From Acinetobacter phage nACB2: a DNA stretch of 64,000 bases. This document shows positions 16,248 through 53,915 of the stretch, piece by piece. Each line of letters opens with the position of its first letter. Position 1 is the first letter of the stretch. A program made the translations under genes and the position numbers. The stretch lies in the sequence record OQ032512.1, one strand, 5' to 3'. The notes below the pieces were generated by a model that saw only the letters and a list, made by a program, of their open reading frames with translations, made no database searches and was not told where the DNA came from.

Positions 16248-19200
16248 TTATGCCAAAGCGATCAATCTCAGCTCTTCCAATACTGGAGATTGAGAACCAA
16301 CCTCACCTAACATTTCAATCTTGAGTTTCAGACCTAGGAAAGATTCATCAGCGTTTATTTCAAACTCAGCTTCATACATATCTGTAGAAGAGTTCTTGAA
16401 CGCTTTTGAGACTTCTACGTCTGCCCATTCTTTCAGTGTTAAGTTATCATCGCCACTTGTGATAGCTTTGTATTTCAACTTAACGGTAGAACCGAATGGT
16501 ACTCGACCCACAACATAGATTTTAGCTGAAGTGGATGGGTTGTTGAACTTCAAAGAACGCGTAACGGCGTTTGCAAGAACATTGTTTTCATCGTTGTTAA
16601 GACAATAACCAACCATTTCTAGACCTGCGCCATCTAGGTCTACGAGTGGCGTTAACCATTCATTATCAGACTTCAATGTTAGATTCAACTTGGGCTTCAA
16701 GGTAGATGAAGAAACGGCGTCAAAAGGCATATCAGCAAATGTATCACTCTCTAGACCTTGTAATGTAACCGCCGTTCTATTTTCTTGAAGATGAGTTAAC
16801 AGATCAATGTTCAAAGACGTACCATCCAGAATGAATGACCCTAACCACGGGCAAACCTTATTGTATGGGTTGTTCGCTTTGATAGCAATAGAACCACCTC
16901 CGATAGCCCCAGTTAGTTGAGCAACAGCCGTTGTTTCTACAGAGAATGTTGAAGCATTTGCTGCTGTAACGCGGTGACGCGCATTGATTAGATTAGCGTC
17001 TATACCATTACCTGATACAGCTCCGGAAACTTCAACATAATCGCCTACCTTTAAGCCATGCCCTAAGCAACCAAAGGCGATAACATTAGAGTCTAAAGTT
17101 GTAGAAATTGAGTTGTATGGTAATGCTTTATCTTCAGGTGAAGCGCCTTCTAATGTTGCAACGTACGCAGAATCAGTTTTGAACTTACAACCGTAAATCT
17201 TGAATTTCAAGTCTTCCAGTTGGTTTGCTGTCCATGTTTGACCGTTAGATGACACAAAGAAAACACCAGTATGAGGTTGTTTAGCAACAACATAGCGGTT
17301 AGATAAATCAATCTCACCCATGCGCGCAAGATAAACATTATATTCTTGAGTGTCAGCTAGTAATACAATTGCGTATTCTCTGTCTTTCTCAAGATAAACT
17401 GGATCACTAAACACAAACTGAGTAGCAACTGTACCATTTTCTGAAATGTTCACCTGAGACGGATTGAGAACAACTTCACCAAAAGTCAATACTTCATTAG
17501 ATGGAACGCCATTGTACACGTTACGAACCTGAAGTGTAACAGGAATTGACTTAGCCTTTGTGGCAAAGAAAATATCAACTGCTTTGATGAAACCACCGCC
17601 GTCTTTAGAGATATTGAACGTTTGAGCAACAGGATCACTATTCCAACGCGCTGTCACACGAGAAGTAGATGAAGTCCATTTTGTCTGTTCAGCGCGCAGT
17701 GTCTTTGTGATAGTTGTAGTCTTTTGACGTACCTCTAATTCACCGCCTGATAGATGGGTTGCCTCACCGCGTGTAAAGTTGTTATTTGGGTTGTCATCAT
17801 TGTTCGCTGAGTCAGTGAATTTCAGAATGTTAGAACCTGTTTTGAAACGGAAGTCATTAGTGTTTGGTACCTTGAATACGCCTGATACGTTACCAGATAC
17901 GTCAGTAACAATGGCTTCTCCGTAGGCTTTACCTGTTTGAGCGCATTGCGATGAAACAGCTACGCCTGAGAAGAAAGGGTACAGGCGCGTTAGTGGCTTA
18001 AATCCGCGTAAATCGAATTTAACTTCAATGCTACGCATATAAGGAATAATACTCAAAGACACTCGAGAATCGTCAACCTTCACGTCAGTTGAGGATGTGA
18101 TTTTAGTATTCAGATACGTCTGAGTAGTCGTTTCAACGGTATTACGCCACCAACTAGACCATTGGAATGAAGATGAAACCGTTGTACCTATAAGTTGATC
18201 ACCAGCTTGGAGTCCATTGGTTAGATCATCTGTCACATTTAACACAATAGGTTTATTGTAAACAGTGTCGCGCCAGAAATCCTGAGCTGGTGTAAGTGTA
18301 ACACTACCTGCCCACGAGAATACCGCAAATGGGTTGATGTTAGACGTTGTTGTTGCATACGGCTGACTAGCGAATTCAACTAATGTGTAAGGAAGAGATA
18401 TAGTTGACGTATGCTTCTGAGCGCCAGAAAGATATGTCATGTCAATACCATTTTGTACAATAGGAGGTGCAATACGCCCTAGATCAGTATCAATAGATGC
18501 AGCCCATTCAGAATCCAAAACGTCAACCAGTTTGAAATCTTTGAAACGATCAGCCGCAATACCATTCTTGAATCGGTTATTTCCAGTTACAGGGTCAAGA
18601 ATTTGTGTACGCTCTGCTTTAGTCTCACTTTGACTCAAAGAGATATAATACTCCGTATTCTCAATACGTTTTTCCAAGCGACCAATATCAGCCATAGTGA
18701 AGCGTTTGTTTTCAACCTTGATTGCCTTAATCTGAGTCACTGAGTCAGTGTAAGCTGGAATGTGAAGTTGATACAAAGCCATACCGTCTGCTGGTATAGT
18801 AGGCGCTTTAGGATTCTCTGATGGTATGCCGCGAGAAACTGAGTAATTTCCGGAAGATGAAACGTACAATACATCAATTCGAGGTAGATACATTGTCAAA
18901 TCAATACGCACGTTGTCATTCGGGTTGATTACATCAAATACAGCTGGAAGATTCGTGAAGCTACCGTCACTTGCTTTCAGAACACGGAAGTCAATGCAAT
19001 CTGCTAGACTACGGATAACGCGGTCTGACGCTTCTTTAGATGTAGGGATATCGGTACGCGCAATATCATAAGAATCGACACAGAAGAAATCGCCTGTGTT
19101 AGAATGTTCAAAGTACTCGTAAGTCACAGATACGTTTGCAGTAATGTTACCGCTAGTGCTGATCAGTTCACCTACTTCATACCAGTTAGGTCTTTGACCA

Positions 19201-21053
19201 TCAAAGAAGCGGAAACCAGGAGTCATATCCAAACCGCTATCAGTATTGGTAACGCTCACTATTTTAAAAATATCAGCTTTGTTCAACTTAACAGAAGATG
19301 ATTCATTGAAAGAGATGTTTTCAGATACTTCTCTCAATGTCTTTGTTTTGTAAGTTGGATTCGTCTTAACAATAGAAGTAACAATGCGAACAACTGAACC
19401 AGAGTAAGATGCACCAAAGTCTAGATTAAGAGCCTTGCCATTTGGAGAACCTGCTAACGAGATACCTGAAATAGGAAGCGCCGTGTCGCCATTTACACTC
19501 GCAAAATAGTCGAAGCTGTTAACTGAGTTGAATAGTTCAGAACCTGTAAGACCAATAGAAGCCTTACCTGAAGCATCTAATGTGACGTCAAATGAACGCG
19601 TAACATTGAATGACACGTCTTGACCAGCAGCGCCCGTCAATGAGCTCACATTTGAGTACGGTAATGAGAATAAAAGGCTATCAGTTGTCCCACCGAAAAC
19701 GCTAGAAGCAGCCAAAGTAGCTTCAAAGGTATCAGAAGGCGAGAAGCTGCCTAAAATACGTTTCACAGAGCCGAATGATTGACCCAGAGACATATTGATA
19801 TCCATCAAGTAAAGGATCGCATTGTTGCCTTCGCGTTTGATAGAACGCACTTTACAAGTGCCCAAGAGCGAATTGCTTTCATCTACTAGGCTGTGAAGAC
19901 GCGTTAGGTCAAGTTTCGGAAGCCCTTTATCAATTGTAACTACAATGAATGATCCGTATAAAGCCTGAAGAACACCATTGTTAACAATCTTTGTATCTCG
20001 CGCCTTACCAACCTCTACGTCTTTGTATCCCACGATTTCGTGACGGTATCCTTGAACGTAAGAAACACCGCGCTTCAGACGCGCTACAAACGTGTCTTCC
20101 TTACCACCTTCTACGTTTGTATATAGACCATCTACGTGGTCACCATCGCGTAGATGTTCCAATAATTCGATAGGAGGGTGTGTAACAGTGTAGTTACCAG
20201 ATTCTTCGTAGGTACGCTGAGCTAGAATATCATTGAAAACAGCGTATTGTGTATTATCATTTACACTTTGGATTACACCACCGTCAATGTCTACAATCTC
20301 AATGAAAGTGTCATCTTTTTCAGATTTATCAATCGCTTCAAGTTTTAATGTAACTTTGAGACGGCAAGCGCCAGCGCCTTTGAAGTTTGGTTCACCCGAA
20401 GCATTTGAATATAAAGATGGGTCTACAGTTTCGTCGATCACTTCTTCATCAATACGGAAACCAACAAGTATAGATGGCGCTTCCTCTGGAATTAGAATAT
20501 CTTGGCTATTCGTCCAGACAAGGTTTCCGCCTACGAAATAAACGCCTTCTAGAACAGAAGCGTAGAAGCCTAAAGCGCTTTCAACAACAGTGGACATTAA
20601 TACGTCTACAGAGGAACCATCGATGTCTTGTGAGATGATGATTGTAGATGCATCCTCAAATGTAGCGCCTTCAGTGCCGTCTGAGTTAAGGTATTCAATT
20701 GCTAACCATCCAGACGTTCCATCTATAGGAAGATACTTCAGAATCTTAGCATTCAAACCAGCATTAGATGCTCTTGCGTTCAAAGAAACATCACCTTCGA
20801 AAAAGGATGCATCAAAATTCACTGGAAGAACTATTTTAACCATATTCTGGCGTTCTTTTAATGAGATTGATCCCTCACCTACAACTGAGCCATCTTTAAA
20901 AAAGTGCGAACCCATTCGATTGATTTGTTCTTGAAGAATGGATTGTAATTGGTTCAACTCTCGGGCTTGTACAACTCGAGGTCTGAATAGAATTTTATGA
21001 AACCCTTTAGATGGGTTGTAATCATCATAAAATGGAGCGTGTGAAGTGTCCAA
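16248..21053 (-). CDS. Very large virion structural protein (about 1601 aa), probably baseplate or tail-fibre associated. It appears to start at TTG.
   Basis: One continuous 4.8-kb frame with no in-frame ATG until codon 48. The upstream stop is followed by 'tatcGGAGAttggccTTGgac', giving SD GGAGA 6 nt before the second TTG. It sits in the late operon between the 938-aa fibre-like paralog and the mini coiled-coil. Confidence 0.7.
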   Translation of the reverse strand: MDTSHAPFYDDYNPSKGFHKILFRPRVVQARELNQLQSILQEQINRMGSHFFKDGSVVGEGSISLKERQNMVKIVLPVNFDASFFEGDVSLNARASNAGLNAKILKYLPIDGTSGWLAIEYLNSDGTEGATFEDASTIIISQDIDGSSVDVLMSTVVESALGFYASVLEGVYFVGGNLVWTNSQDILIPEEAPSILVGFRIDEEVIDETVDPSLYSNASGEPNFKGAGACRLKVTLKLEAIDKSEKDDTFIEIVDIDGGVIQSVNDNTQYAVFNDILAQRTYEESGNYTVTHPPIELLEHLRDGDHVDGLYTNVEGGKEDTFVARLKRGVSYVQGYRHEIVGYKDVEVGKARDTKIVNNGVLQALYGSFIVVTIDKGLPKLDLTRLHSLVDESNSLLGTCKVRSIKREGNNAILYLMDINMSLGQSFGSVKRILGSFSPSDTFEATLAASSVFGGTTDSLLFSLPYSNVSSLTGAAGQDVSFNVTRSFDVTLDASGKASIGLTGSELFNSVNSFDYFASVNGDTALPISGISLAGSPNGKALNLDFGASYSGSVVRIVTSIVKTNPTYKTKTLREVSENISFNESSSVKLNKADIFKIVSVTNTDSGLDMTPGFRFFDGQRPNWYEVGELISTSGNITANVSVTYEYFEHSNTGDFFCVDSYDIARTDIPTSKEASDRVIRSLADCIDFRVLKASDGSFTNLPAVFDVINPNDNVRIDLTMYLPRIDVLYVSSSGNYSVSRGIPSENPKAPTIPADGMALYQLHIPAYTDSVTQIKAIKVENKRFTMADIGRLEKRIENTEYYISLSQSETKAERTQILDPVTGNNRFKNGIAADRFKDFKLVDVLDSEWAASIDTDLGRIAPPIVQNGIDMTYLSGAQKHTSTISLPYTLVEFASQPYATTTSNINPFAVFSWAGSVTLTPAQDFWRDTVYNKPIVLNVTDDLTNGLQAGDQLIGTTVSSSFQWSSWWRNTVETTTQTYLNTKITSSTDVKVDDSRVSLSIIPYMRSIEVKFDLRGFKPLTRLYPFFSGVAVSSQCAQTGKAYGEAIVTDVSGNVSGVFKVPNTNDFRFKTGSNILKFTDSANNDDNPNNNFTRGEATHLSGGELEVRQKTTTITKTLRAEQTKWTSSTSRVTARWNSDPVAQTFNISKDGGGFIKAVDIFFATKAKSIPVTLQVRNVYNGVPSNEVLTFGEVVLNPSQVNISENGTVATQFVFSDPVYLEKDREYAIVLLADTQEYNVYLARMGEIDLSNRYVVAKQPHTGVFFVSSNGQTWTANQLEDLKFKIYGCKFKTDSAYVATLEGASPEDKALPYNSISTTLDSNVIAFGCLGHGLKVGDYVEVSGAVSGNGIDANLINARHRVTAANASTFSVETTAVAQLTGAIGGGSIAIKANNPYNKVCPWLGSFILDGTSLNIDLLTHLQENRTAVTLQGLESDTFADMPFDAVSSSTLKPKLNLTLKSDNEWLTPLVDLDGAGLEMVGYCLNNDENNVLANAVTRSLKFNNPSTSAKIYVVGRVPFGSTVKLKYKAITSGDDNLTLKEWADVEVSKAFKNSSTDMYEAEFEINADESFLGLKLKIEMLGEVGSQSPVLEELRLIALA

Positions 21054-21112
21054 GGCCAATCTCCGATATTTTGGAACGTATATGTCTGTCTTTATTTAGC
21101 ATTAGACATAAG

Positions 21113-21140
21113 AAAGGGGCTTGCGCCCCTTTTTCTTACC
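21113..21140. terminator. GC-rich hairpin aaaggggc-ttgc-gcccctttt; family 2 terminator/attenuator.
   Basis: Read directly. An identical core is found at 53894-53925, with relatives at 30098-30113 and 32743-32765. Confidence 0.6.
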
Positions 21141-23952
21141 AGTTGCCTCGTATGAAACTGTTAGCATTGTAATACTGCGATGATGTAATCGTTACACCAT
21201 CTTTTTTCAATACTAGAGTTCCTCCACCAGATTTTATTAGACCTGCAGCTCCAGCAGCTGTATTAACGCCAGTAGAGGTAGAAACGGCGCCAGCCATTCC
21301 TAGATCACCGCCCTTTCCGCCAATGTAATCCGTGGTCACAGAAGTTACTTCGTCAACGTGAGTGTACGTTCCGCCTTGAGCGCCCAAAAGTCTTGATGCT
21401 TGAGAACCTGCGTAGTCAGCAGTACCACCTAAACCTGTAGCTGCGCCACCACCGCCACCAACGTATTTTCCATTGATAGTAACACCACCGCCGCCACCAC
21501 CACCTGACGCTACGATTACGTCTCCAGAATAAAGATTGATGTTTAAAGTGTGACCCGACCCAATATTGAAAACATTTCCTCCAACTGCCCCAACTCTAGG
21601 AACTTTAGGATCAGCGCCCTGACCACCCTTTCCTATGATACCACCAGTGCTGTTCCAATAAAGATTAACAACTGTTCCAGCCAACCAATTATCAGAAGTT
21701 ACAGCGAATTTGTTTGTAGCGGAAGCCTCAAACCAAGATTCTCCAGTAACATAGAGGTTACAAATCCAAGGAACGTCTTGAGTACCAAACTGAGTTTCAA
21801 ACAAAGTTTTCAAATCAACGTCTTGTTTTACTTCACCTGAAATGTACAGGTTTTGAATCGGGGTTGTCGATGTATCTTTAATCAACAAAGGTTTGTTAGA
21901 GTCAGCAACTATAGACGAGGTTGATTGATTCACCCACTCCATATATAGAATTTCATCACCTTCTGTTTTACGGTCTGCGCGTATTACAATTTTTTGAGAT
22001 AATATGATATTACCGTTGAATGACTGAGCTACAATATTACTATTGGTGATGTCTACGTCATCGCCCTCGACAATATTACCAGTTGTACCGACTGTCTTGA
22101 TGTTAGGTTTGAAGAACGTACCTTGAGTTGTACCAGACGGAACTCTCAGCACGAAGTAAACAGTGTCTCCTTCATTAGCCTGTGTAATAGCTGTAGAACC
22201 GTTAGAAGCTGTAGAATACCAACACTCAGCCTTCCAAGCTGTGTCCACTATTTGAATATTTGTAGAAGTAACCACAACACCTGCTAGAAGTACATTAAGC
22301 GTAATTGTCTCAGTGCCTTCGTACGGTTTAGTTGCATCGGCTTCAAATTTTACTGGTACAACAATTAAGTTATTGTTAATGTTTCTTGCAGCCCCAAATT
22401 CAACAATGTTTTCAATGTCTGAATCCGATGAACTAGAGAAGGTAAAAGATGTGCCGTTTGCAACATACTTTGACTCAAGCATAAGGTAAACAGTGTCACC
22501 TTCATTAGCCTGTGTAATAGTTGTAGAACCATCTGAGAATCTAGACACCCGACTCTTGTATTCTGGTGGCCCAGATACATCTAGAACACTAATTTCTTTA
22601 AATGTATTAGTGGCAGCTAGAGTGAAACGCAATGTTTCAGTAGATTCTGGAAGGAAGTCTTGTACAATTGGAAGGTCAACAATACCTTGATTATTCTGAA
22701 TAGTAACGTATCCTGATAAAGAACCATCTACGTCAGACTGAGATATTTGTGTAAAATTATATGCTAAGGATTCACCGTTCGCAAGACCATTTGCAGACAC
22801 AATTACGCGTAAGGTTTGACCTTCGCTGATCTGAGTAGATTCCGTGAATAATGAACCTTGGAGAATGCCCATTCTGATTCCTAGAACTACATCAGATTCC
22901 GAAGGCTTCGATTCATACACAACCCAATTGACCTTTCCATTCCAAGTGTTAGCGGTTGGAGACTTAGCGACAACACCAAAACCGCCATTTGTACGACTAA
23001 CAATCTGGAAACCTTGACAGTCAGTTAGAATTTTCTCTGGAGAAGCGTTAATGATATAACGACTCTGAGACAAGTCTATATTGGGCACTGAAATGGTTAC
23101 TGGAGTGGAACCATTAAGGCTCAAAATGTCTGAACCACCTGCTACAGCTCTTGGATAGCGCTTGGACGTAAACACTTGAGTCCAGAAGCCGTAAACACCA
23201 TTGTTTCTAGAACGATAATACATATCATTCTGGAGGTCGATAAACAATTGAGCGCCGATGGATGTATTATTTGTGCCAGATATTGTATAACAAATACCAA
23301 TACCGTCTGTATTTGGTCTAGAACCAGCTGTAGCTGGATTACAAGAAGCGACAGACGAATAAACCACTTCATTGAGGTCTATGTTCACGCCGTTAGATGA
23401 ATCTTTCACCTCAATAGCATTCACGTAGCCGTATTTTCTCTGATTCTTCAATTCTGTGAATTGAGGATAATCTACAGAAGGGTTCAAACGCCCCTGTGCG
23501 CTCATAGATGTGATTTCTACTAGTGCTTCGGAATACAAACCAGATATCGCTGTCATTGAAATAATCAATCCAACGTTCTGATTTCCATTGCGTTTTGCTA
23601 TGTACGCGCCCTTGAATTTAAAAATAGAAGGGTCTTCATTCATTGAGCTCAGAATGTTAATACTGTTATCGATACTATCTGAAGATAGGTCTGCTGATGA
23701 TAGTTGTCCACTCGCAGCTATTACAATATTGAAACGCTTTTTGTTTAGAGAAATGTCAACGATATAAATGCCGTTGATGACATTACCCTCGTCAGCAACA
23801 AAATTATATTCATTTGACTTTCTTAACACTTTCAAAGCAGCCGAAGTGGTATCTAGCGTGAAATTCTTTTCAAGCGAAAGGTATTTTAATCCAGAGACGT
23901 TAGGCGTTTGAATACCTTCCGGAAATCTGGTAGATAGACTGTTGTCTGACAT
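21136..23952 (-). CDS. Baseplate/tail-fibre-like structural protein, paralog A (938 aa), with a Gly-rich C-terminus and internal Ig-like repeats.
   Basis: The N-terminal 300 aa or so are homologous to the 821-aa protein at 24382-26847 (for example CNPATAGSRPNTDGIGIC vs CNPASQSSRPNKSGIGMC). C-terminus contains 'ASGGGGGGGVTINGKYVGGGGGAA'. SD AAGAGGA. Confidence 0.7.
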   Translation of the reverse strand: MSDNSLSTRFPEGIQTPNVSGLKYLSLEKNFTLDTTSAALKVLRKSNEYNFVADEGNVINGIYIVDISLNKKRFNIVIAASGQLSSADLSSDSIDNSINILSSMNEDPSIFKFKGAYIAKRNGNQNVGLIISMTAISGLYSEALVEITSMSAQGRLNPSVDYPQFTELKNQRKYGYVNAIEVKDSSNGVNIDLNEVVYSSVASCNPATAGSRPNTDGIGICYTISGTNNTSIGAQLFIDLQNDMYYRSRNNGVYGFWTQVFTSKRYPRAVAGGSDILSLNGSTPVTISVPNIDLSQSRYIINASPEKILTDCQGFQIVSRTNGGFGVVAKSPTANTWNGKVNWVVYESKPSESDVVLGIRMGILQGSLFTESTQISEGQTLRVIVSANGLANGESLAYNFTQISQSDVDGSLSGYVTIQNNQGIVDLPIVQDFLPESTETLRFTLAATNTFKEISVLDVSGPPEYKSRVSRFSDGSTTITQANEGDTVYLMLESKYVANGTSFTFSSSSDSDIENIVEFGAARNINNNLIVVPVKFEADATKPYEGTETITLNVLLAGVVVTSTNIQIVDTAWKAECWYSTASNGSTAITQANEGDTVYFVLRVPSGTTQGTFFKPNIKTVGTTGNIVEGDDVDITNSNIVAQSFNGNIILSQKIVIRADRKTEGDEILYMEWVNQSTSSIVADSNKPLLIKDTSTTPIQNLYISGEVKQDVDLKTLFETQFGTQDVPWICNLYVTGESWFEASATNKFAVTSDNWLAGTVVNLYWNSTGGIIGKGGQGADPKVPRVGAVGGNVFNIGSGHTLNINLYSGDVIVASGGGGGGGVTINGKYVGGGGGAATGLGGTADYAGSQASRLLGAQGGTYTHVDEVTSVTTDYIGGKGGDLGMAGAVSTSTGVNTAAGAAGLIKSGGGTLVLKKDGVTITSSQYYNANSFIRGNW
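22156..22540 (-). repeat. Intragenic direct repeat: a 45-nt near-identical DNA segment occurs twice (22156-22200 and 22496-22540) inside the 938-aa gene.
   Basis: 'gtaaacagtgtc[t/a]ccttcattagcctgtgtaatag[c/t]tgtagaacc' appears twice. Each copy encodes the 'GSTxITQANEGDTVY' domain repeats. Confidence 0.7.
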
Positions 23953-23974
23953 GCGATGTTCCTCTTTTGGTTAC

Positions 23975-24382
23975 TTATTTCAAATTGAAAAAACGGTAAC
24001 CAATTTGTTTCATACCGTAATTTTTGTGAAGAGCTGAAACAATTAATGAACCGTTCCAATCAGAAGGTATAGAAAAAGTCCATACGCACTCTGTTCCGTT
24101 TATGAATCTGATAGCTGGTAATTCGATGAAGTTACTTCCTGAACTATTGTCGCCAGAAGTTTGAAGAATAACAACTATTTCGTCTCCTGAGACCAATCCA
24201 CTGAATGATGAAAAGGATACTTTATGCTGCTTCATTCTTTCTACGCTAGTGACGAGTTGGTTAACGCCATCTCTCACTACTGGAGAAACGGTAGCTGAAC
24301 GCGTCACGCGTTCAATTACCATACTAGCTGTTTTTAGCTTGTTACTACCAACCTTGATATTGACTTGTGCTAATGCGCTCAT
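23975..24382 (-). CDS. Hypothetical structural protein (135 aa) between the two paralogs.
   Basis: TAATG coupling with the upstream 821-aa gene. Confidence 0.55.
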   Translation of the reverse strand: MSALAQVNIKVGSNKLKTASMVIERVTRSATVSPVVRDGVNQLVTSVERMKQHKVSFSSFSGLVSGDEIVVILQTSGDNSSGSNFIELPAIRFINGTECVWTFSIPSDWNGSLIVSALHKNYGMKQIGYRFFNLK

Positions 24383-26847
24383 TAATGACCACTCACTATC
24401 CCAGATATGTTCTTGATATCTACGTTGAATTCATTTTGGAGAATGATTCTTCCTGCTTTACCGCCTTTACCCGCATTAACGACGACAGAATAAAAGGTGT
24501 TAACGTTGTCCATAATGCCGTCTGTACCGTCTTTTCCTAAATCTCCGCCATTACCAGCAGAAGATGGAATAGCAATTATATCATTGTACTTTGCGCCTAG
24601 AGTTGCAGTTGCATCGCCCACGGGGTGTTTATTATCTACAGTTGTGACATTTCCTTCCATCTTGTACAGAACATTATCCCTAGAATACCATTGACGTATC
24701 AAAGCGTATGAAGGGGTATATTCTATCAACGATTGGGAGTTTTTACCTGCCCCAATGAATTCTACGCCTGCTCCCATTATTGGTGGGGTCTCCCCATAAG
24801 GAGCGCCACCTCCTCCAGACATAATTGGATTATAATTAGTTGCGCTATAACCATTTAGATTTATAAAACAAACGCCAGAAGCGCCACCCCCTCCGCCACC
24901 AGACATTATGTTTCCGTAGTTATACACTGTTAAGAATACAGTAGGACTTCCGTCAATACAAGCACCGCCGTTCTCACCGTCAAGCTGATTAATAGACATT
25001 GATGAAGGAGCGTAACCACCTCTTCCACCTCTTCCGTAGATGTTACCGTTGTTCACTAGTGTTACGGTAGATCCGTACGGAAAATCTCCTACTGTTATCG
25101 CAGGTTGTATAACGGTAGATGCTGAAACAGTAACTCCAGAAGAAATAACAAATCTGATATTACAAGGATCGCTGATTTTTCCCAATACAGTCTTAGCTAA
25201 ATTGTAAAGATTCAGGTTAGACTGGTCTGTTGTAATGTTCACAACCTCTTCATCTACACTAGGTTGGTTTACGTTTATTGGATATGAAAAAACATTGTTA
25301 TTATTAAACATGACGGCGATTTGACTAGGGAGTCCGCCTAAAACAAATTCAGAAAAAGTCGATCCTTCAAAGTCAATATGGTATTCGACACTTGGATCAT
25401 ATTCAACGCCTTTAACGATAACAAAGAACTGAAACCCATTATCCAATTTTGTTATAGGTTGCGTACCCGCAGCGTCCTTTGAAAAATACAATTCAAATAT
25501 AGGTGCGACAGAAGTGTCTTTGAGCATCAAAGAAGCAGTAACACTTGTTCCATTAGCGAGTACCAATGAAAGATTTTTGTCCCCATCGGCTATTGCATCT
25601 CTAAGAACAGATATATCAATATAGGCTGATGAATTTCTAACAACAAATTGGCCACTAAGAGGTATCCCTACATCAGACTCATTAACACCTTGAATAGTAA
25701 ACGGCACGGAAGTTCCATCTGTGACATTTTGAGTTGAAAGTACGAATCTAGCTGTCTGACCTTCTTCAACAGAAGTAGCTGGACGAAAATCCTGACCATC
25801 CAAACGCCCGCAAGTTAAATTAAATACAGGGTCTGTTTCAGCTGCGCGTATCTCTGTAATGGAATAAGAAATTACACCAGCCCAAGGTTTTACAGTTTTT
25901 ATCCCAAATCCATTTTCTGCTCTACTAGATACTTGAATATCATCTGTTAAACTCACAACGTCGTATTGAGGCGTGAATGTTATAGAATATCTTAATTGAC
26001 GCAGGTCAATATCATTAACTGGGATTATAGTCTCGTTTACCCCATCTGAAGACACAAAGAATATTCCACTATAGACAACTTTCGGATAAGTTGAATTGCT
26101 ATCAACCCCGACCCAAGATGAATTTCCGGAACGAAGATACATCTTACCGTCTTCAGACCAAAACAATTGCACTTTAAATGCATCTGCGATGAATGTGGTA
26201 CACATTCCTATACCAGATTTATTAGGTCTAGACGATTGACTAGCTGGGTTACAAAGTATTATGGAATTTTCATTAACATCGCTGAGATTAACGTTCACTC
26301 CTTCGCTATCATCAATGACCTTTTTCGTCGACAGAATACCAGTTACTGTGGTCTTGATATCAATGGTGTAGTCTGCGAAAGATGAAGATGGTCTCACCTT
26401 AGAACTCGAACCAACCTGAGTTACCTTAACCTTCACAGGATAAGATTCAAACCCTGTCCCAGCTATACTCATTAACAAACCAACGTCTGTTGTAGATGAA
26501 GCCTTTACGTCCAAATATTCTAAGGACATGTTATTGACGGTTGTTAAACTCAATAATTGTACTGTATTTTGATATTCAATCGAACCTTCAAATGCAGATT
26601 GCTTAGCGTTCGCTGAAATAAGACAACGGAGTGAACCGCCGTCTATATCCTCAACACTAACAAAATAAAGTCCAGAGATTGTTTGCTTATAATCCAAAAC
26701 AATATTACAGACAGAACCCGAAAAGCTCACTTGTATTTCTTCTGTAGAGCACCCAAAGTTACGCCCAAACAATAGCTGTTCAAGACCAATTAAAGACTTG
26801 GACATTGCTCCTTTAGGATATATGGATGGTAAAGAGATATCAGTCAT
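24382..26847 (-). CDS. Baseplate/tail-fibre-like structural protein, paralog B (821 aa), with a Gly-rich C-terminus.
   Basis: Homologous N-terminus to paralog A. C-terminus contains 'SGGGGGGASGVCFINLNG...SGGGGAPYGE'. Confidence 0.7.
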   Translation of the reverse strand: MTDISLPSIYPKGAMSKSLIGLEQLLFGRNFGCSTEEIQVSFSGSVCNIVLDYKQTISGLYFVSVEDIDGGSLRCLISANAKQSAFEGSIEYQNTVQLLSLTTVNNMSLEYLDVKASSTTDVGLLMSIAGTGFESYPVKVKVTQVGSSSKVRPSSSFADYTIDIKTTVTGILSTKKVIDDSEGVNVNLSDVNENSIILCNPASQSSRPNKSGIGMCTTFIADAFKVQLFWSEDGKMYLRSGNSSWVGVDSNSTYPKVVYSGIFFVSSDGVNETIIPVNDIDLRQLRYSITFTPQYDVVSLTDDIQVSSRAENGFGIKTVKPWAGVISYSITEIRAAETDPVFNLTCGRLDGQDFRPATSVEEGQTARFVLSTQNVTDGTSVPFTIQGVNESDVGIPLSGQFVVRNSSAYIDISVLRDAIADGDKNLSLVLANGTSVTASLMLKDTSVAPIFELYFSKDAAGTQPITKLDNGFQFFVIVKGVEYDPSVEYHIDFEGSTFSEFVLGGLPSQIAVMFNNNNVFSYPINVNQPSVDEEVVNITTDQSNLNLYNLAKTVLGKISDPCNIRFVISSGVTVSASTVIQPAITVGDFPYGSTVTLVNNGNIYGRGGRGGYAPSSMSINQLDGENGGACIDGSPTVFLTVYNYGNIMSGGGGGGASGVCFINLNGYSATNYNPIMSGGGGAPYGETPPIMGAGVEFIGAGKNSQSLIEYTPSYALIRQWYSRDNVLYKMEGNVTTVDNKHPVGDATATLGAKYNDIIAIPSSAGNGGDLGKDGTDGIMDNVNTFYSVVVNAGKGGKAGRIILQNEFNVDIKNISGIVSGH

Positions 26848-26918: not shown

Positions 26919-27284
26919 ATGAACGTCATTGATAACCGTATTAAGATTACAACTCGGATGGGTGCAGATATAAATGAAACAATATCTGGAACTGACCCTG
27001 TCTCTAAGTTGAGTTATCGTTTTGATGAATATGAAGATATTCAACTACATCTTTCGCTTTCCAAAATAGGGCAGCCGTATTATTCTAAGCCTTTGGATTA
27101 CGACGCAGCTTTACCCAGAACATTAATCATTCAATTAACAGAATCTGAACTATTGAATGAACATCCTGTCGAAACAATGGGTTTTGTAAACCCACCACCT
27201 TTCTTTCACTTTTATATCAATGCAAAGAAAGGTGGTAATAGAGTGGTATTGTTTAATGGTGTTATTGAACGCCCTCAATATTAA
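26919..27284 (+). CDS. Hypothetical protein (121 aa) encoded on the opposite strand inside the late structural operon.
   Basis: A plus-strand ORF with an AGAGGA SD. It diverges from the 821-aa gene and converges on gp25-like; the two stop codons overlap by 4 nt. Confidence 0.45.
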   Translation: MNVIDNRIKITTRMGADINETISGTDPVSKLSYRFDEYEDIQLHLSLSKIGQPYYSKPLDYDAALPRTLIIQLTESELLNEHPVETMGFVNPPPFFHFYINAKKGGNRVVLFNGVIERPQY

Positions 27285-27652
27285 GATGTGCGTACAATCT
27301 TAATAGAATCTTCAGACATCTCCAGCTCATTTTCGTACAGATACTTGATCTTGATAATGAGATGGTGATGTTTTGAACCGTCAAAATCTATTGCTTTAAT
27401 GACAATTCTTGGTTCATCAATTCTAGCAATCTCCTCAATCTTAGATGTTATCTGCGCTCTCAACAAAGCATTATCATTATCGAACAAAGTCTGATAGATA
27501 TTTCCGCCGTGGATATCGCTGCGCATAATAAAATCTTCAATCCCAGATAATACTAGGGTCTTGAATGCTTGAAATACAGCCTTTTTACCGCGCAACAGGT
27601 TCAAATCTCTAGTCTGCGGGTGTATGAGAAAATTGGGGTCGAAATCAGCCAT
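27281..27652 (-). CDS. gp25: Baseplate wedge protein gp25-like (GPW/gp25 family).
   Basis: Start moved to the ATG at 27652 (SD GGAGA); the TTG at 27685 is an ORF-caller artefact. 'FDPNFLIHPQ...VFQAFKTLVLSGIEDFIMRSDIHGGNIYQTLFDNDNALLRAQITSKIEEIARIDEPRI' aligns with T4 gp25 'FDPEFGCDLSDQLFENMTPLTADTVERNIESAVRNYEPRI'. Confidence 0.7.
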   Translation of the reverse strand: MADFDPNFLIHPQTRDLNLLRGKKAVFQAFKTLVLSGIEDFIMRSDIHGGNIYQTLFDNDNALLRAQITSKIEEIARIDEPRIVIKAIDFDGSKHHHLIIKIKYLYENELEMSEDSIKIVRTS

Positions 27653-29087
27653 TAGAGTTATCTCCAGTATTTTGTTGCGCACCAAGTGGTATTATTTGAG
27701 CGCCCATTCCAAGGTAGGGTAAATCATTGTAAACAAAGAACCCACTATATTGAGAAGGCATTTCATCAAGTCTAGGAATGAACATACCATTAGCAACGTT
27801 CAAAGGCGCGTCTGGTTTGATCTGTTTACTGCCACCATCTTGATCAGTTTCAATCTGAATAGACTGAGACAGATTAGCTAGAGACATACCAGCTGGAGAT
27901 CCGGGAGCAAATGCGTTAGCAAACTTTGCAACCTCTGCAGTAGCAGCATTGAGTTGAGCAACAGGCGCGGTACAAGTTAATTCAGCTGCGGTAACATCAG
28001 TGGAATTAATCTCTTTTGCATCCATAGGCTTAGAAAAGGCTGAAGGCGCGTTTACCTGCAAATCTGACGATTCTACGGTCATCTGATCATTAGACATAAC
28101 CTTTTGACCGACCTTCTCATAAGATTGCCCCTCGACAATTTCTGCTTGGTCTTCCTTCTGAAGCTTCTGAACTGAACCGCCTGCAAGCAAATAAAGGTCT
28201 TTATGAGCCTTTATCACAACATCACCGTCCATATGCATTTCAATGTAAGAACCTGACATATGGAATATCATAATCCTTTCGGCGCCAGGAGTATCATCCA
28301 CCTCAATGCAATGACCAGACGGCGATTGGTACACCTTATTATGAGGATATTGAGGAGCTGCCTTACCTCTTGGTTCAGTTACTCCAGATATTCTAGAATC
28401 TGGAGTTGAGGCGTCAGTAGAGCTACCTGATGACTCAGGCAACTCCTCAACTTCCTTTCCCAATAAAACGCTCAATGCGCGTTTATACATTGACGTACGC
28501 TCTTCCATATGAAGACTAGCAGCATTAATGCGTTTCACACAAACAGCCCAGTTTCCTGAATCAGCCTGACGGTTCAAACCTTTGTCGCTCCAGAACCAAC
28601 AAGCCGAAGCTGATGCGGCAGGTTTTTGTTGCAATACTTCAGGGTTACTCAGAGAATTGAATGATGGTTCTTTACGATGAAAGGCTGCTACGTTACCTTT
28701 ACCTGTTAACTGTATAAGACCTTGACCACGGTATTTCCAACCATCACCCGAAGCTTCGGAACCATTACCATTTTTGTTAGCATAAACGTAGTTAGCAATC
28801 TTTTGAGGATTTCTAGCATATGACTCCGCCGACACCTTTGCGAACTTAGATGGAAACGTATTTCTCAACCCTTCAGCTGAATAGTTCAGATTTTCAACGA
28901 GGGTCTTGAAGTTATTAGATTCTACAGACAAGTTACCAAAGAACATAGAAATACGATACGTAGTTGTAATATCGTATTTCTTCATATATGGCCATAGCAC
29001 TGAATGCCAATCTGACGCATTGCTCAGACCGAAAATCTTTTGTAGATGATCTACTGTTAATTCAACAGGAATATTTTCCGCGCTCAT
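27645..29087 (-). CDS. Tail-associated lysozyme: N-terminal GH19/COG3179 'phage chitinase-type' lysozyme domain plus a C-terminal gpV/gp5-spike-like domain (480 aa).
   Basis: 'GNLSVESNNF...YANKNGNGSEASGDGWKYRGQGLIQLTGKGN' matches the COG3179 GH19 lysozyme signature. The C-terminal half 'HCIEVDDTPGAERIMIFHMSGSYIEMHMDGDVVIKAHKDLYLLAGG' looks like a spike beta-structure. TAATG coupling with the upstream gene. Confidence 0.65.
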   Translation of the reverse strand: MSAENIPVELTVDHLQKIFGLSNASDWHSVLWPYMKKYDITTTYRISMFFGNLSVESNNFKTLVENLNYSAEGLRNTFPSKFAKVSAESYARNPQKIANYVYANKNGNGSEASGDGWKYRGQGLIQLTGKGNVAAFHRKEPSFNSLSNPEVLQQKPAASASACWFWSDKGLNRQADSGNWAVCVKRINAASLHMEERTSMYKRALSVLLGKEVEELPESSGSSTDASTPDSRISGVTEPRGKAAPQYPHNKVYQSPSGHCIEVDDTPGAERIMIFHMSGSYIEMHMDGDVVIKAHKDLYLLAGGSVQKLQKEDQAEIVEGQSYEKVGQKVMSNDQMTVESSDLQVNAPSAFSKPMDAKEINSTDVTAAELTCTAPVAQLNAATAEVAKFANAFAPGSPAGMSLANLSQSIQIETDQDGGSKQIKPDAPLNVANGMFIPRLDEMPSQYSGFFVYNDLPYLGMGAQIIPLGAQQNTGDNSNG

Positions 29088-30040
29088 TATTTTTTCCTCA
29101 AGTTAGCAGTATCTGGGAATGAAGCTCCAATCAAAGATGATCTCGCATATGATGTTCTTGTGACCTCACCGCCGTTTTGAGAAGCCTTATTCTTGGAAGA
29201 CTGGTTACCACCCACTGCGTAAATGCGTCCATTCTTTTCATATTCGCAGAAGAACACGTGTCCAGAACTAGCGCCCCGATTACCAGCAATGACACATATT
29301 GATCCAGGAGGTATTGGTTTTTGATTTAGGACATTCTTGCCGTATTTCACATAAGAACGCGCAGCAGCTGAACCAGAGCCTTTGATACCAACCTGATTTA
29401 GACACCAACCAATGAAAGAAGCGCACCAAGGCGTCTCACCACCCCATTTAGATGAACCTCCGCCTTTAGCGTGGTATTGTCTGATCTGATTAGGGTGATC
29501 TCGCTCGTTCTTGCCTAGTTCACCAATGGCCACTTTCAACCAAGGATAGTTCGCTAACTCTTCTGGACTGATTTGAGTTTCATTGCCATTAGTTGAGCCG
29601 TCAATATCGCCTTCAATTGCATTAGCGTCTTTAGCTGCATAAACATCCGAAGACGTTACAATACCTCTAGCTAATGGGTTAACATCATGATCCGTACCAT
29701 TTGGAAAGGGCATAGCTGTATCTGTAAGATTTTGACGTTGCCCAGCTATGGTGAACTGTACTTCCCATTCTTGGTAATCATTCTCGCTTTTTGGTCTTAG
29801 TCTGACCATTGAGCCTTCGAGAAGCCCTAATGGGGCAGCGCCTAGACCTGATACAAATGGATTAGTTGCAGGCACAGCAATAGAACACCAAGGTAATTTT
29901 TCTTTTGGTACTTCTGCTGTGTTTAATGAATGAATTCCAAATATGCGTACGCGCACCCGACCTGTTTCAGTTGGATCCATAAGGTCTTCAACGATGCCCA
30001 CATAATCGCCGCAATATAACGGTCTTGATATTTGAGACAT
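29087..30040 (-). CDS. Baseplate hub/cell-puncturing protein, N-terminal part: gp5-like OB-fold plus a CHAP peptidoglycan hydrolase domain (317 aa).
   Basis: 'YVGIVEDLMDPTETGRVRVRIFGIH' resembles the gp5/VgrG N-terminal OB-fold motif. The C-terminus 'PWCASFIGWC...GHVFFC' has the CHAP catalytic Cys and His. Confidence 0.65.
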   Translation of the reverse strand: MSQISRPLYCGDYVGIVEDLMDPTETGRVRVRIFGIHSLNTAEVPKEKLPWCSIAVPATNPFVSGLGAAPLGLLEGSMVRLRPKSENDYQEWEVQFTIAGQRQNLTDTAMPFPNGTDHDVNPLARGIVTSSDVYAAKDANAIEGDIDGSTNGNETQISPEELANYPWLKVAIGELGKNERDHPNQIRQYHAKGGGSSKWGGETPWCASFIGWCLNQVGIKGSGSAAARSYVKYGKNVLNQKPIPPGSICVIAGNRGASSGHVFFCEYEKNGRIYAVGGNQSSKNKASQNGGEVTRTSYARSSLIGASFPDTANLRKK

Positions 30041-30046
30041 AAAAAA

Positions 30047-30089
30047 GCCTGATTGATAAATTCTCTATTGAGATATTTATCAATCAGGC
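30047..30089 (-). promoter_or_regulatory. Perfect 15-bp inverted repeat (gcctgattgataaat / atttatcaatcaggc) in the leader of the gp5-like gene. It overlaps a late-promoter-like GATAAATA.
   Basis: Read directly: a 13-nt loop, located between the terminator at 30098-30113 and the ATG at 30040. Confidence 0.45.
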
Positions 30090-30114
30090 AAAATAAAAGG
30101 GGCGTTTGCCCCTA
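30088..30114 (-). terminator. Terminator after the 112-aa gene (aggggc-gttt-gcccct + T-run on the minus strand).
   Basis: Read directly. Confidence 0.65.
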
Positions 30115-43026: not shown

Positions 43027-43040
43027 CATAAATATTTATG
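43027..43040. promoter_or_regulatory. Palindromic late-promoter-like element CATAAATATTTATG between the divergent gp19 and 43066 genes.
   Basis: Both strands read cATAAATAtt, which matches 7 of 8 positions of the T4 late -10 consensus TATAAATA. It lies about 25-30 nt from each start codon. Confidence 0.4.
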
Positions 43041-49239: not shown

Positions 49240-51873
49240 TTATCCTTGGCAGTTTTCGCAGTCTTCATCTTTCTCTTCAGAGAAAAGATTATCAGCTTGA
49301 GCGAGATGTTCTTTGTAAAGGGCTTGTACTTCTTTATGACCGCCAATCCAAGCACCATCTAAGAACACTTGAGGTACAGAACGGCAAGAAGGGTCGCCTG
49401 TTACTTCAGCGGCAGTTTTTTCAATCTGTTGTAGATCAACAAATTTGAATTCTACGCCCATATCACTTAACCAACGCTTAACTGTAGTACAATTAGGGCA
49501 GACTTTTGTACCGTAAACAATATTCTCACCAGACTTCTGTTCTTTCTTAACAGAATCTTTCAGAGCTTTACGCTCTAGAGCTTGAGACAATGTTTCAATC
49601 TCAACTTCAGGCTTCGTACGGTAGTAATACAGAGATTTTAAACCCCATTTCCAAGCGTAGAAGTGACATGCGACTACATAGTTGATATCACTTCCTGGTT
49701 TGAAGAACAAGTTTAAACTTTGAGCCTGACAGATTTCAGGTTGACGGTCGGCGGCAAGACGAACAATGCTCAATTGAGGAATCTCAAAAGCTGTAGCAAA
49801 TACGCGCTTTTTATGATCGCTCATGAATTCTAGATGAGATACTGAACCTTCATTATGAGCAATGCTTGTCCATACTTCTTCAGTATCTTGACCTAGTTCT
49901 TGAAGATACTTCTTCAAATAAGGGTTGCGGCGTTCAAAGATACCAACACGCGTTTCTTTAGTGTAGATGTTAGCGTATTCAGGTTCACAGCTGGCTGATG
50001 TAGTTAGCATATCAGCATTGTTAGAGTTAGGCGCGATAGCAAGTAAATGCATGTTACGACGACCAACGTGCGGATGATCTTTAGAACTAGCCGCATCTGG
50101 ACATTCACCGCGCTCTTCACCTAATTTAAGTGTTTCGGCTACAGCTTCTGTTTTGATGCGTTTGAATAATGCTTTGTTGAAAACACGCGCTTCTTCAGAA
50201 TCAAATGGCATATCTTGCTTCTGGAAAGCGTAATGAAGACCCATAACGCCTAGACCAATAGAACGTTCTTGAGTTGCTGAATTGATCACTTTGTACAAAG
50301 CCATTTTAATCAATTCACGGTGACGTGGATTATCATAGCGGTTCGCAATCCAGTCTGCAGTGCGAATGAAATGTTCAATGGCATTGTCCAATGCACGCAC
50401 TAAGTCGCCTACTAAGGTAGGTGCCCATTGATCATGATATTCAGCATTTAATGAAGACAAGCAGCACACTGGAGTACGGTCATCATTCGCTGGAAGAGTA
50501 ATTTCAGTACAGTTAGAAACAAGCGCAACTCGATGATCGAAATCATTTTTACCGCCCACGCTTACATAGAAGTTATGGTTGTCTTCTACAGTTAAACAGT
50601 AAACATCTTGTGTTCCAACATTTTGCTCAACGGAAGCAACTGTAAGATCAGAATTGTCAAAATTTACAGAGCCGTGACGGAACAGACGAGAATCAATTTG
50701 CTTACCAACAGAATCTTTTGCTTTTACGCGTTTTCCGATGGTTGTGAATAGTTCATGATCTTTCGTACAAGTGATAGTTTCACCTGAACGGAAAGTCAGG
50801 GTAACCATTTCTTTACGTCCAGTCAATTTAGCAGTAGCCGTTTTGACCTCAGGGTAGACTTTACCGTTTGAAACTCGTCCTGTCCATACTTTGAATGGAA
50901 TAGAACCAGACGATTCACGCGCCAACTGTTTAATAGAGATAGGCTTACGACCGTCTGCTACAATTACTTTTGTATCACCTGCAAGACACAAGTTTGAAGC
51001 GTATGAATACAATCCGAGACGTTTCTGAGCTTCAGGCAGTGCGCGGTTTGCATTACCACGGAAATACATGAACGGTTCGCCTGTGCGACCGCGTTCGACA
51101 ATCATAGAACGGAAGTAATCTGTAGGATTTACAGTGTCCACAACGCGTTTTGAATGCGGATCAATCAGGTGATATTCTTCAGCGCCGTCTTCAATGCGTT
51201 CCATGAGATCATCTTCAATAGAGAATCCAATATGGATGTTTTCAGCTTTGCGGTTCGCGTCACCTGTAGGAGTACGAATCTTCAAAAATTCTTTAGCGGA
51301 AGCGTGATTAGCAGATAACCAACAAGCTTCAGCGCCACGGCGTACTTTGCCTTGTTTCCACGCTAGAATTGCTGCGTCATCTTCAATAATGAACGGAATT
51401 GGGCCAGGAGATTTTTCAGATGTATAGCGGATATCAAAGTATTTGCCGATACCGCCGCCAATTACAGACAGTAAAGACGATTCTAATTTACCCATCAATA
51501 AAGAAGGGATATTATCAGACACCATAGGAAGGAAACAAGAAATATTCTGAGAACCATTATGGTTGAAATCTTCTTCATGTTCCCAAATAGGTAATGATTG
51601 GTTAATCATACCAGCTTTCCACACTTCAGGCTTCAGTTCCGGAGCATTAGACAGCATAGGCGAAGACCACATGAAATGCAGCATAGAGTTGGCATCATAA
51701 AGGCGCTGAGCGTGATGAACGTCATCAGACCAAGCTACGCATGCACGAGCTAGTGTTTCTTGGATTGTTTCCCCACTACGTGTATAAAAGTTTTTGATAA
51801 GGTCTTTCGCAGGTTCTGTAAGCAAATTATCTCGAGAATCATCAATATTGATTCCCATGTAAACACGTGTCAT
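49240..51873 (-). CDS. nrdA: Ribonucleotide reductase large subunit (NrdA) with no ATP cone. It contains a 159-aa mini-intein at the catalytic Cys and a C-terminal glutaredoxin-like domain.
   Basis: Extein '...YSYASNL|CTEITLPANDDRTPVCCLSSLNAEYH' matches E. coli NrdA 'SNLCLEIALP...IALCTLSAFNL'. C-terminal Grx fold 'CPNC...SVPQVFLDG' followed by a 'CENC' tail. Start moved to the ATG at 51873 (SD GGTGGA); the ORF-track GTG at 51882 is an artefact. Confidence 0.85.
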   Translation of the reverse strand: MTRVYMGINIDDSRDNLLTEPAKDLIKNFYTRSGETIQETLARACVAWSDDVHHAQRLYDANSMLHFMWSSPMLSNAPELKPEVWKAGMINQSLPIWEHEEDFNHNGSQNISCFLPMVSDNIPSLLMGKLESSLLSVIGGGIGKYFDIRYTSEKSPGPIPFIIEDDAAILAWKQGKVRRGAEACWLSANHASAKEFLKIRTPTGDANRKAENIHIGFSIEDDLMERIEDGAEEYHLIDPHSKRVVDTVNPTDYFRSMIVERGRTGEPFMYFRGNANRALPEAQKRLGLYSYASNLCLAGDTKVIVADGRKPISIKQLARESSGSIPFKVWTGRVSNGKVYPEVKTATAKLTGRKEMVTLTFRSGETITCTKDHELFTTIGKRVKAKDSVGKQIDSRLFRHGSVNFDNSDLTVASVEQNVGTQDVYCLTVEDNHNFYVSVGGKNDFDHRVALVSNCTEITLPANDDRTPVCCLSSLNAEYHDQWAPTLVGDLVRALDNAIEHFIRTADWIANRYDNPRHRELIKMALYKVINSATQERSIGLGVMGLHYAFQKQDMPFDSEEARVFNKALFKRIKTEAVAETLKLGEERGECPDAASSKDHPHVGRRNMHLLAIAPNSNNADMLTTSASCEPEYANIYTKETRVGIFERRNPYLKKYLQELGQDTEEVWTSIAHNEGSVSHLEFMSDHKKRVFATAFEIPQLSIVRLAADRQPEICQAQSLNLFFKPGSDINYVVACHFYAWKWGLKSLYYYRTKPEVEIETLSQALERKALKDSVKKEQKSGENIVYGTKVCPNCTTVKRWLSDMGVEFKFVDLQQIEKTAAEVTGDPSCRSVPQVFLDGAWIGGHKEVQALYKEHLAQADNLFSEEKDEDCENCQG
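50512..50988 (-). mobile_element. Mini-intein (159 aa, no obvious homing-endonuclease domain) inserted immediately before the thiyl-radical Cys of NrdA.
   Basis: Block A 'CLAGDTKVIVADGR', block B 'GETITCTKDHELFT', block F 'DVYCLTVEDNHNFYV', C-terminal 'VALVSN' followed by +1 Cys. The flanking exteins rejoin to the canonical 'SNLCTEI'. Confidence 0.75.
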
Positions 51874-51990
51874 ATATTCCACCGTAAATTTATAAAACTG
51901 TCTAATAGCGTTCTATCCAGACACCCAAAGCCTATCATAACCCTATTTATTAGAAAGCTGACTTTATCAAATATTTTTGGAGAATTTTAA

Positions 51991-53878: not shown

Positions 53879-53915
53879 TTCGACCTCCATAATAAAGGGG
53901 CTTGCGCCCCTTTAT

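Follow-up and report, generated by a model that had tools for sequence, protein, structure and literature searches.

A gp5-type cell-puncturing spike probably divided into an OB-CHAP and a GH19-spike chain in Acinetobacter phage nACB2

Does the baseplate module of Acinetobacter phage nACB2 encode a gp5-like cell-puncturing device that is divided over two genes, each carrying a peptidoglycan hydrolase different from the lysozyme of phage T4? We analyzed a window of 64,000 nucleotides of this phage (OQ032512.1), for which an earlier reading of the bare sequence, in the following called the original prediction, had proposed such a device in two adjoining open reading frames (ORFs), here gene 1 and gene 2. 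Both ORFs are present exactly as proposed and code for 317 and 480 amino acids, respectively, and the peptides quoted for them, i.e. GIVEDLMDPTETGRVRVRIFGIH, PWCASF, GHVFF and GDGWKYRGQGLIQLTG, are all located in the two ORF products. Our data suggest that the central cell-puncturing spike of this ViI/PhiW-14-like myovirus is probably made up of two chains, one from each gene, with the composition (OB-CHAP)3(GH19-spike)3. The first gene and its domains are the following:

29087..30040, minus strand: gene 1, probable OB-CHAP hub subunit; ORF of 317 amino acids, corresponding to nACB2_131 (100% identity)
29636..30040, minus strand: gp5-type N-terminal OB domain, gene 1 residues 1-135 (Pfam, T4 gp5 alignment, AlphaFold2 (AF2) model)
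29090..29560, minus strand: CHAP/TIGR02594 cysteine peptidase-amidase domain, gene 1 residues 161-317 (Pfam, invariant residues, fold)

Gene 1 carries the gp5-like OB fold and the CHAP domain that were proposed for it. Pfam reports Gp5_OB with 35.1 bits (cutoff 25) and CHAP with 30.4 bits (cutoff 26), the NCBIfam model TIGR02594 scoring 69.7 bits and thereby slightly under its cutoff of 70.55. Residues 10-82 of T4 gp5 align to residues 12-79 of gene 1 (E-value (E) 2e-12), and the comparison with PHROG yields phrog_430, annotated as 'baseplate hub subunit and tail lysozyme' (E 5e-29). The AF2 model has a predicted local distance difference test score (pLDDT) of 63 overall and of ~75-85 in both domains; its OB domain superposes on T4 gp5 with a root-mean-square deviation of 3.9 A across ~92 columns (Foldseek), and its C-terminal domain shows a fold like that of NlpC/P60-CHAP autolysins. 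C206, H261 and N279, the last one being part of a GGNQ motif, are invariant across 19 homolog clusters and are candidates for the catalytic triad of the CHAP domain. The members of all of these clusters (19/19) are stand-alone proteins of 314-330 amino acids.

The second gene is composed of three parts:

27645..29087, minus strand: gene 2, probable GH19-spike subunit; ORF of 480 amino acids (PHROG and ortholog matches)
28452..29087, minus strand: GH19-type muramidase domain, gene 2 residues 1-212 (PDB matches; invariant E56, E65, Q126 and T128)
28053..28451, minus strand: linker and gp5C-type spike start, gene 2 residues 213-345 (alignments with T4 gp5 and phiMAM1 gp5)
27648..28052, minus strand: distal, lineage-specific part of the spike chain, gene 2 residues 346-480 (a helix and a small beta unit predicted)

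Since Pfam gives no assignment for gene 2, its identity is based on matches to PDB, PHROG and orthologs. The PHROG matches are phrog_181 (E 2e-82) and phrog_430 (positions 312-430, E 2e-26). Residues 24-208 match the solved GH19-type endolysins 8P8E, 9EOI and 4OK7 with E-values from 6e-36 to 9e-19, in agreement with the proposed GH19-type lysozyme, and a four-sequence profile of gene 2 matches about 20 bona fide GH19 chitinases (E 5e-7 to 1e-3). Among the gene 2 orthologs, PF00182 scores 41.8 bits in the metagenomic lineage L012 (cutoff 25.5) and 24.4 bits, slightly under the cutoff, in Delftia phage PhiW-14. Residues E56, E65, Q126 and T128 are invariant in 31/31 family members; E56 and E65 are assigned as the catalytic Glu pair, complemented by a Q-x-T motif. 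As proposed, the hydrolases of the two genes are other than T4 lysozyme, i.e. CHAP and GH19, and no GH24 domain is present.

For the region following the GH19 domain, the single sequence of gene 2 already matches T4 gp5 (residues 219-306 versus 360-446, E 2e-6), residues 225-306 being aligned with T4 gp5 residues 365-446. With the four-sequence profile (positions 212-340) versus T4 gp5 residues 334-469 the E-value improves to 2.5e-18. Common to gene 2 and T4 gp5 is the linker/helix-start signature DSRI..EP..YP..SGH.E.DDTPG.ER, and AF2 predicts strands at residues ~249-294 of gene 2 with a pLDDT of ~80. The recognizably gp5C-like stretch of the C-terminal half comprises ~100 amino acids only, and residues 346-480 are conserved solely inside the GH19-spike family. 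The spike-like C-terminal domain of the original prediction is therefore retained for residues ~225-345, which are gp5C-like, but not for the lineage-specific residues 346-480. We judge the GH19 and gp5 matches, together with the conservation in about 30 protein clusters, to be far beyond chance.

How do the two genes relate to known gp5 proteins? In T4, cleavage of gp5 at S351/A352 yields gp5* and gp5C, which remain together in the particle (gp27-gp5*-gp5C)3, and the lysozyme is held at ~10% activity by the helix and the linker until gp5C dissociates (PMC3004832). The S351/A352 site maps to residue ~212 of gene 2, i.e. to the boundary between the GH19 domain and the linker. The pair shares with T4 gp5 (PDB 1K28) the N-terminal OB domain, an enzyme domain between OB and spike, the linker-helix signature and a gp25-type gene nearby, and it would also share the two chains per protomer in the mature particle (gp5* and gp5C in T4). 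While T4 has one gp5 gene, the product of which is cleaved post-translationally, nACB2 has two ORFs with their own start codons. The OB chain carries one GH24 lysozyme in T4 but CHAP in nACB2, where GH19 belongs to the spike chain; the chain break therefore precedes the glycosidase here and follows it in T4. Unlike T4 gp5, gene 2 has no detectable VxGxxxxx repeat region, and the distal end differs.

A closer counterpart of gene 1 and of the spike start is given by the gp5 proteins of the ViI type (CBA120, ViI and phiMAM1, Ackermannviridae). For CBA120, a gp5 bearing CHAP/TIGR02594 instead of T4 lysozyme was reported by Kutter et al. in 2011, and the ViI ortholog was detected in virions (PMC3184105). 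These proteins have in common with the pair the OB domain, CHAP/TIGR02594, the spike start and a gp25 or gp25-like gene directly downstream, which is found in the window at:

27281..27652, minus strand: gp25-like baseplate wedge subunit (phrog_261, E 5e-13; phrog_43, E 4e-8)

In contrast to the pair, ViI-type gp5 is a single chain of 537-606 amino acids. Residues 15-309 of gene 1 are colinear with residues 10-282 of phiMAM1 gp5 (34% identity, E 9e-42), which comprises 606 amino acids, and residues 246-351 of gene 2 are colinear with its residues 338-440 (36% identity, E 7e-15). Where ViI-type gp5 has a linker of ~55 amino acids, gene 1 of nACB2 ends at its stop codon, gene 2 starts, and a GH19 domain of 212 amino acids follows; given the colinearity of both genes with phiMAM1 gp5, the GH19 module therefore begins with a start codon of its own and takes the position of the ViI-type linker. 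The C-terminal ~190 amino acids of ViI-type gp5 have no detectable relation to gene 2 residues 346-480, and no similarity was found between these two ends. The conserved spike-start module itself was found in 2,564 representative clusters, where it is part of many different architectures. A recent horizontal acquisition of the GH19 module was considered and rejected, as the composition test shows GC and third-codon-position GC (GC3) to be unremarkable across the module.

We compared ten lineages, i.e. nACB2 (the window), SH-Ab 15599, PhiW-14, RSP15 and the metagenomic lineages L005/6, L007/8, L009, L010, L011 and L012. All of them (10/10) combine a gene for an OB-enzyme chain with one for a GH19-spike chain, accompanied by a gp25 gene in 9/10; in RSP15 no gp25 gene is present within 2.5 kb of the pair. 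A megablast of the region versus the phage collection gave no match. At the protein level, SH-Ab 15599, PhiW-14 and Ralstonia phage RSP15 are most closely related among sequenced phages, with the ViI-like Ackermannviridae next in line. Identities to gene 1 and gene 2 amount to 83% and 68.5% in SH-Ab 15599, 45% and 34.5% in PhiW-14, and 38% and 39% in RSP15 (ORF208/ORF207). Architecture and domains of these orthologous pairs are alike with no essential difference to the window, the length of the C-terminal tail varying (480-588 amino acids). Using local domain hidden Markov models (HMMs), we identified 29 proteins, the one of the window included, in which GH19 and spike occur without an OB domain; 15 of them are found in an exhaustive search within the 150 best cluster representatives at 50% identity.

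The annotation of the orthologous pairs ranges from 'hypothetical protein' over missing to 'endolysin'. In PhiW-14 an OB-CHAP ORF of 328 amino acids (L002 3980-4966; GQ357915 approx. 70152-71138), supported by Gp5_OB with 75 bits and CHAP with 34.7 bits, is absent from the GenBank/RefSeq annotation, in which the name gp5 is given to the downstream GH19-spike gene 82 alone. The RSP15 pair is named 'baseplate hub subunit and tail lysozyme' and 'endolysin' in RefSeq. Our literature search found no description of the gene split or of the added GH19 domain, and the paper on nACB2 does not discuss the two genes.

The arrangement around the pair varies. The layout of the window recurs in L010 and L007/8; in L011 a SprT-like gene on the opposite strand separates the two genes, and in L005/6 gp25 sits between the OB-enzyme gene and the GH19-spike gene. 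In L009 (2401-5894) the order is OB-CHAP, a free-standing GH19 protein of 202 amino acids, GH19-spike and gp25, which we assign as a tandem GH19 duplication with the catalytic residues kept in both copies. In L012 (3206-5880) OB-Peptidase_M15_3 (31.1 bits versus a cutoff of 23.2) replaces OB-CHAP, followed by GH19-spike and gp25; with M15 in place of CHAP, the peptidase of the hub chain is therefore exchangeable. In L005 (6344-10954) and L006 (4472-6709) the GH19-spike chain runs into an Ala/Glu/Gln-rich, coiled-coil-like extension of >1,500 amino acids, the product being called as 1,733 amino acids with about 1,537 inside the examined locus; this extended chain could be a giant central fiber or an ejected protein.

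These comparisons support a model according to which three OB-CHAP copies would form a hub-proximal ring docking beneath the tail-tube hub, like T4 gp5*, and three GH19-spike copies would trimerize via the gp5C-type module into a needle under this ring. The resulting (OB-CHAP)3(GH19-spike)3 would be the genetically encoded counterpart of the proteolytically generated (gp5*)3(gp5C)3 of T4, gene 1 being equivalent to gp5* and gene 2 to gp5C, with the glycosidase shifted onto the needle chain. Upon sheath contraction the needle would breach the outer membrane, GH19 would then cut the glycan strands and CHAP the peptide stems or cross-links, whereby a local passage for the tube would be opened in the peptidoglycan. 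In evolutionary terms, and compared with the single-chain ViI-type gp5, an endolysin-type GH19 module that has its own start codon occupies the linker between CHAP and helix. The analysis shows the domain identities, the colinearity, the conserved split, gene partnership and catalytic residues, and the separate lysis cassette; the virion location, the hetero-hexameric complex, the enzymatic activities and a dissociation of the needle in the periplasm are proposed. Rather tentatively, the fission might in addition replace the maturation cleavage of T4 and create a division of labor, with the needle being shed into the periplasm as a diffusible GH19 trimer and the peptidase (CHAP or M15) staying fixed at the tube tip.

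Several observations weigh against a gp5-like stacked spike. Neither a gp27-like hub nor a PAAR/gp5.4 tip was recognized in the window by PHROG, Pfam and PDB comparisons. Gene 2 has no Pfam match at E<=1, and Pfam detects no Gp5_C/Gp5_trimer_C VxGxxxxx repeats in it; of the Pfam results that had been expected, Gp5_OB and CHAP were found in gene 1, but Glyco_hydro_19 and the gp5 C-terminal repeat were not found in gene 2. Residues 346-480 match no known fold. As a monomer, the spike half yields a poor AF2 model (pLDDT 53), uninformative past residue ~294, which we attribute to the intertwined trimer expected for such a chain, and the Foldseek matches of this part of the model are driven by the conserved start alone. 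The >1,500-amino-acid extension in one lineage hints at further roles of the chain.

Alternatively, both proteins might reside in the virion with no T4-like stacking, for example with OB-CHAP alone plugging the hub and the GH19-spike chain being attached elsewhere or being an ejected or central-fiber protein. The distal 135 amino acids of gene 2 are unrelated to known gp5 ends, the L005 homolog carries the giant coiled-coil-rich extension and the gene order varies among lineages, all of which would fit this explanation. However, the two chains exactly complement one ViI-type gp5, the spike chain retains the linker and helix-start signature that in T4 is located directly beneath the OB ring, and the gene pair stays together in every lineage compared. 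We therefore regard a separate location of the two chains as improbable and favor the two-chain spike.

A different question is whether gene 2 encodes the endolysin of the phage, acting from within late in infection, its adjacency to a hub gene being incidental. Its best PHROG family, phrog_181, bears the name 'endolysin', as does the RSP15 ortholog in RefSeq, its GH19 domain shares ~40-47% identity with true endolysins, and the nACB2 paper reports an endolysin or lysis cassette as not found. With the GH19 endolysins (SPN1S 4OK7, 8P8E, 9EOI) gene 2 shares the catalytic domain, the Glu pair and the QLTG motif; these are, however, free proteins of ~200-280 amino acids, often with PG_binding_1 and encoded in lysis cassettes, whereas the GH19 domain of gene 2 is the N-terminal part of a spike chain that is encoded in the baseplate module. 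We identified a lysis cassette elsewhere in the window:

53916-54521, minus strand: PG_binding_1 and Peptidase_M15_4 endolysin, 201 amino acids
53345-53890, minus strand: Rz-like i-spanin
53386-53646, minus strand: embedded o-spanin-like ORF, 86 amino acids, with an LVGC lipobox-like motif

The presence of a separate M15 endolysin and spanin cassette argues that the GH19 domain of gene 2 is not the lysis enzyme. Moreover, GH19 is fused to the gp5C-type spike module in 29/29 family proteins, and gene 2 is placed between the hub gene and gp25, making an endolysin role of gene 2 very unlikely. With the M15 endolysin, CHAP and GH19 the phage thus has three wall-degrading chemistries, two of them in the baseplate module. 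A TATAAATA motif is located at 54691, near the lysis cassette (53345-54521).

The last alternatives concern the border of the two genes:

29085..29099, minus strand: coupling junction with Shine-Dalgarno sequence (SD), A6 run and TAATG stop/start overlap, read from the sequence

Within GAGGAAAAAATAATG the SD GAGGA occupies 29099-29095, the TAA stop codon of gene 1 29089-29087 and the ATG of gene 2 29087-29085, the final A of the stop codon being the first base of the start codon, which agrees with the TAATG coupling originally proposed. Relative to gene 1, gene 2 is shifted into the -1 frame, with AGG AAA AAA TAA ahead of the junction, raising the possibility that programmed -1 ribosomal frameshifting at the A6 run fuses the ORFs, at least partly, into a T4-like gp5. 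Yet the four sequenced phages have four junction types (TAATG in the window, TAAcATG in SH-Ab 15599, TGATG in PhiW-14 and ATGA in RSP15), no slippery run exists in the relatives, the frame offsets differ, with SH-Ab 15599 being in the +1 frame, other genes stand between the two ORFs in L011, L009 and L005, and the A-run doubles as the spacer of a good SD. Because the junctions differ in this way we set the frameshift aside, considering it a little less probable still than the endolysin role. A sequencing or assembly frameshift or a pseudogenized single gp5, to which nothing but the adjacency of the two ORFs points, is rejected as having a negligible probability, since four phages sequenced independently of each other, as well as many metagenome contigs, keep the split with differing junctions, each gene 2 ortholog having its own SD and start codon and all catalytic residues being retained. 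The two-gene split is real and not an artefact; that the layout persists although the junctions vary and other genes may be inserted is a much stronger argument than the TAATG overlap on which the original prediction had relied.

The description of the two-chain arrangement as unusual was overstated. The layout is present, without having been remarked on, in PhiW-14, RSP15, SH-Ab 15599, nACB2 and about 29 GH19-spike clusters, the one of the window included, a gp5 with CHAP for lysozyme was already published in 2011, and gp5 proteins with two hydrolases are found in other architectures as well. Among metagenomic proteins, P0061 and P0119 are single chains of the order OB-spike-CHAP-GH19, P0178 and P0270 of the order OB-VgrG3C lysozyme-spike-M15, and P0242 of the order OB-M15-Phage_lysozyme2-spike; like the pair, all of them combine the gp5 OB domain and a spike with two unrelated hydrolases, typically a peptidase and a glycosidase. 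P0061 and P0119 were considered as unsplit versions of the pair and rejected, because their domain order differs. Specific to the nACB2-type system is the conserved fission with one enzyme per chain, which we regard as moderately unusual.

The analysis proposes a function for two 'hypothetical proteins' of Acinetobacter phages under therapy study (nACB2 and SH-Ab 15599), and it corrects annotations by adding the missing ORF in PhiW-14 and reassigning the RSP15 ortholog named 'endolysin'. The separation of hub and needle, which is proteolytic in T4, would here also be fixed genetically, supporting the functional importance of separable chains. CHAP and GH19 as two virion-associated lysins acting on Acinetobacter from outside would be candidate enzybiotic modules, and the pairing of a peptide-cutting with a glycan-cutting enzyme may be a recurrent rule in gp5 evolution. 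If the tentative reading with a shed needle is correct, the spike would represent a modular platform with the peptidase on the hub and the glycosidase on the needle, evolving by enzyme swap, and a natural system for testing the need for separate gp5* and gp5C chains.

At the downstream end of the pair, the ATG of the gp25-like gene at 27652 overlaps the stop region of gene 2, within ATGGCTGA, so that a gp25-like gene directly follows gene 2, where the original prediction had placed gp25. The PHROG baseplate wedge assignment is accompanied by a Pfam GPW_gp25 score of 20.8 bits (E 3.5e-4; cutoff 27.2) for the protein of the window, and the gp25 orthologs of the relatives exceed the Pfam cutoff.

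The upstream end is marked by the following element:

30041..30113, minus strand: putative upstream control region with two hairpins 5' of gene 1 (fold -39.1 kcal/mol, z -8.8)

The first hairpin upstream of gene 1 is a GC-rich terminator. The second one is formed by a perfect 15-bp inverted repeat (30089-30075/30061-30047) ending 6 nucleotides before the ATG of gene 1; its left arm contains the T4-late-promoter-like sequence GATAAATA (30081-30074) and its right arm the sole SD-like AGG ahead of this ATG. By analogy to T4 gene e and soc, transcripts initiating within the hairpin would be predicted to free the SD of gene 1. In the upstream region of SH-Ab 15599 the terminator and a CTAAATA are kept, the long inverted repeat is not.

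In the remaining window, CATAAATA is found on the minus strand at 43040, 57753 and 60612, which is 25, 35 and 10 nucleotides upstream of the tail-tube gene and two fiber-like genes, respectively; we regard these motifs as candidate T4/ViI-type late promoters. The region 21136-26847 (minus) encodes two adjoining large fiber proteins of 938 and 821 amino acids, both with a T4 gp38-adhesin-like domain (Pfam GP38, E 4.6e-15; phrog_2056) and the smaller one with Gly-rich repeats at its end, and a DUF4815/phrog_358 protein of 1,603 amino acids (16248-21059, minus) lies between the neck genes and the fiber genes. The large ribonucleotide reductase subunit NrdA (49240-51882, minus; 880 amino acids) apparently carries an intein-like insertion at residues ~300-470 (CLAGDTKV...HNFYV...VSNC) and a thioredoxin/glutaredoxin-like domain (phrog_22) at its C-terminus. 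On the opposite strand, nrdA is adjoined by a gene for a PF12322 T4_baseplate protein of 257 amino acids (51991-52764, plus).

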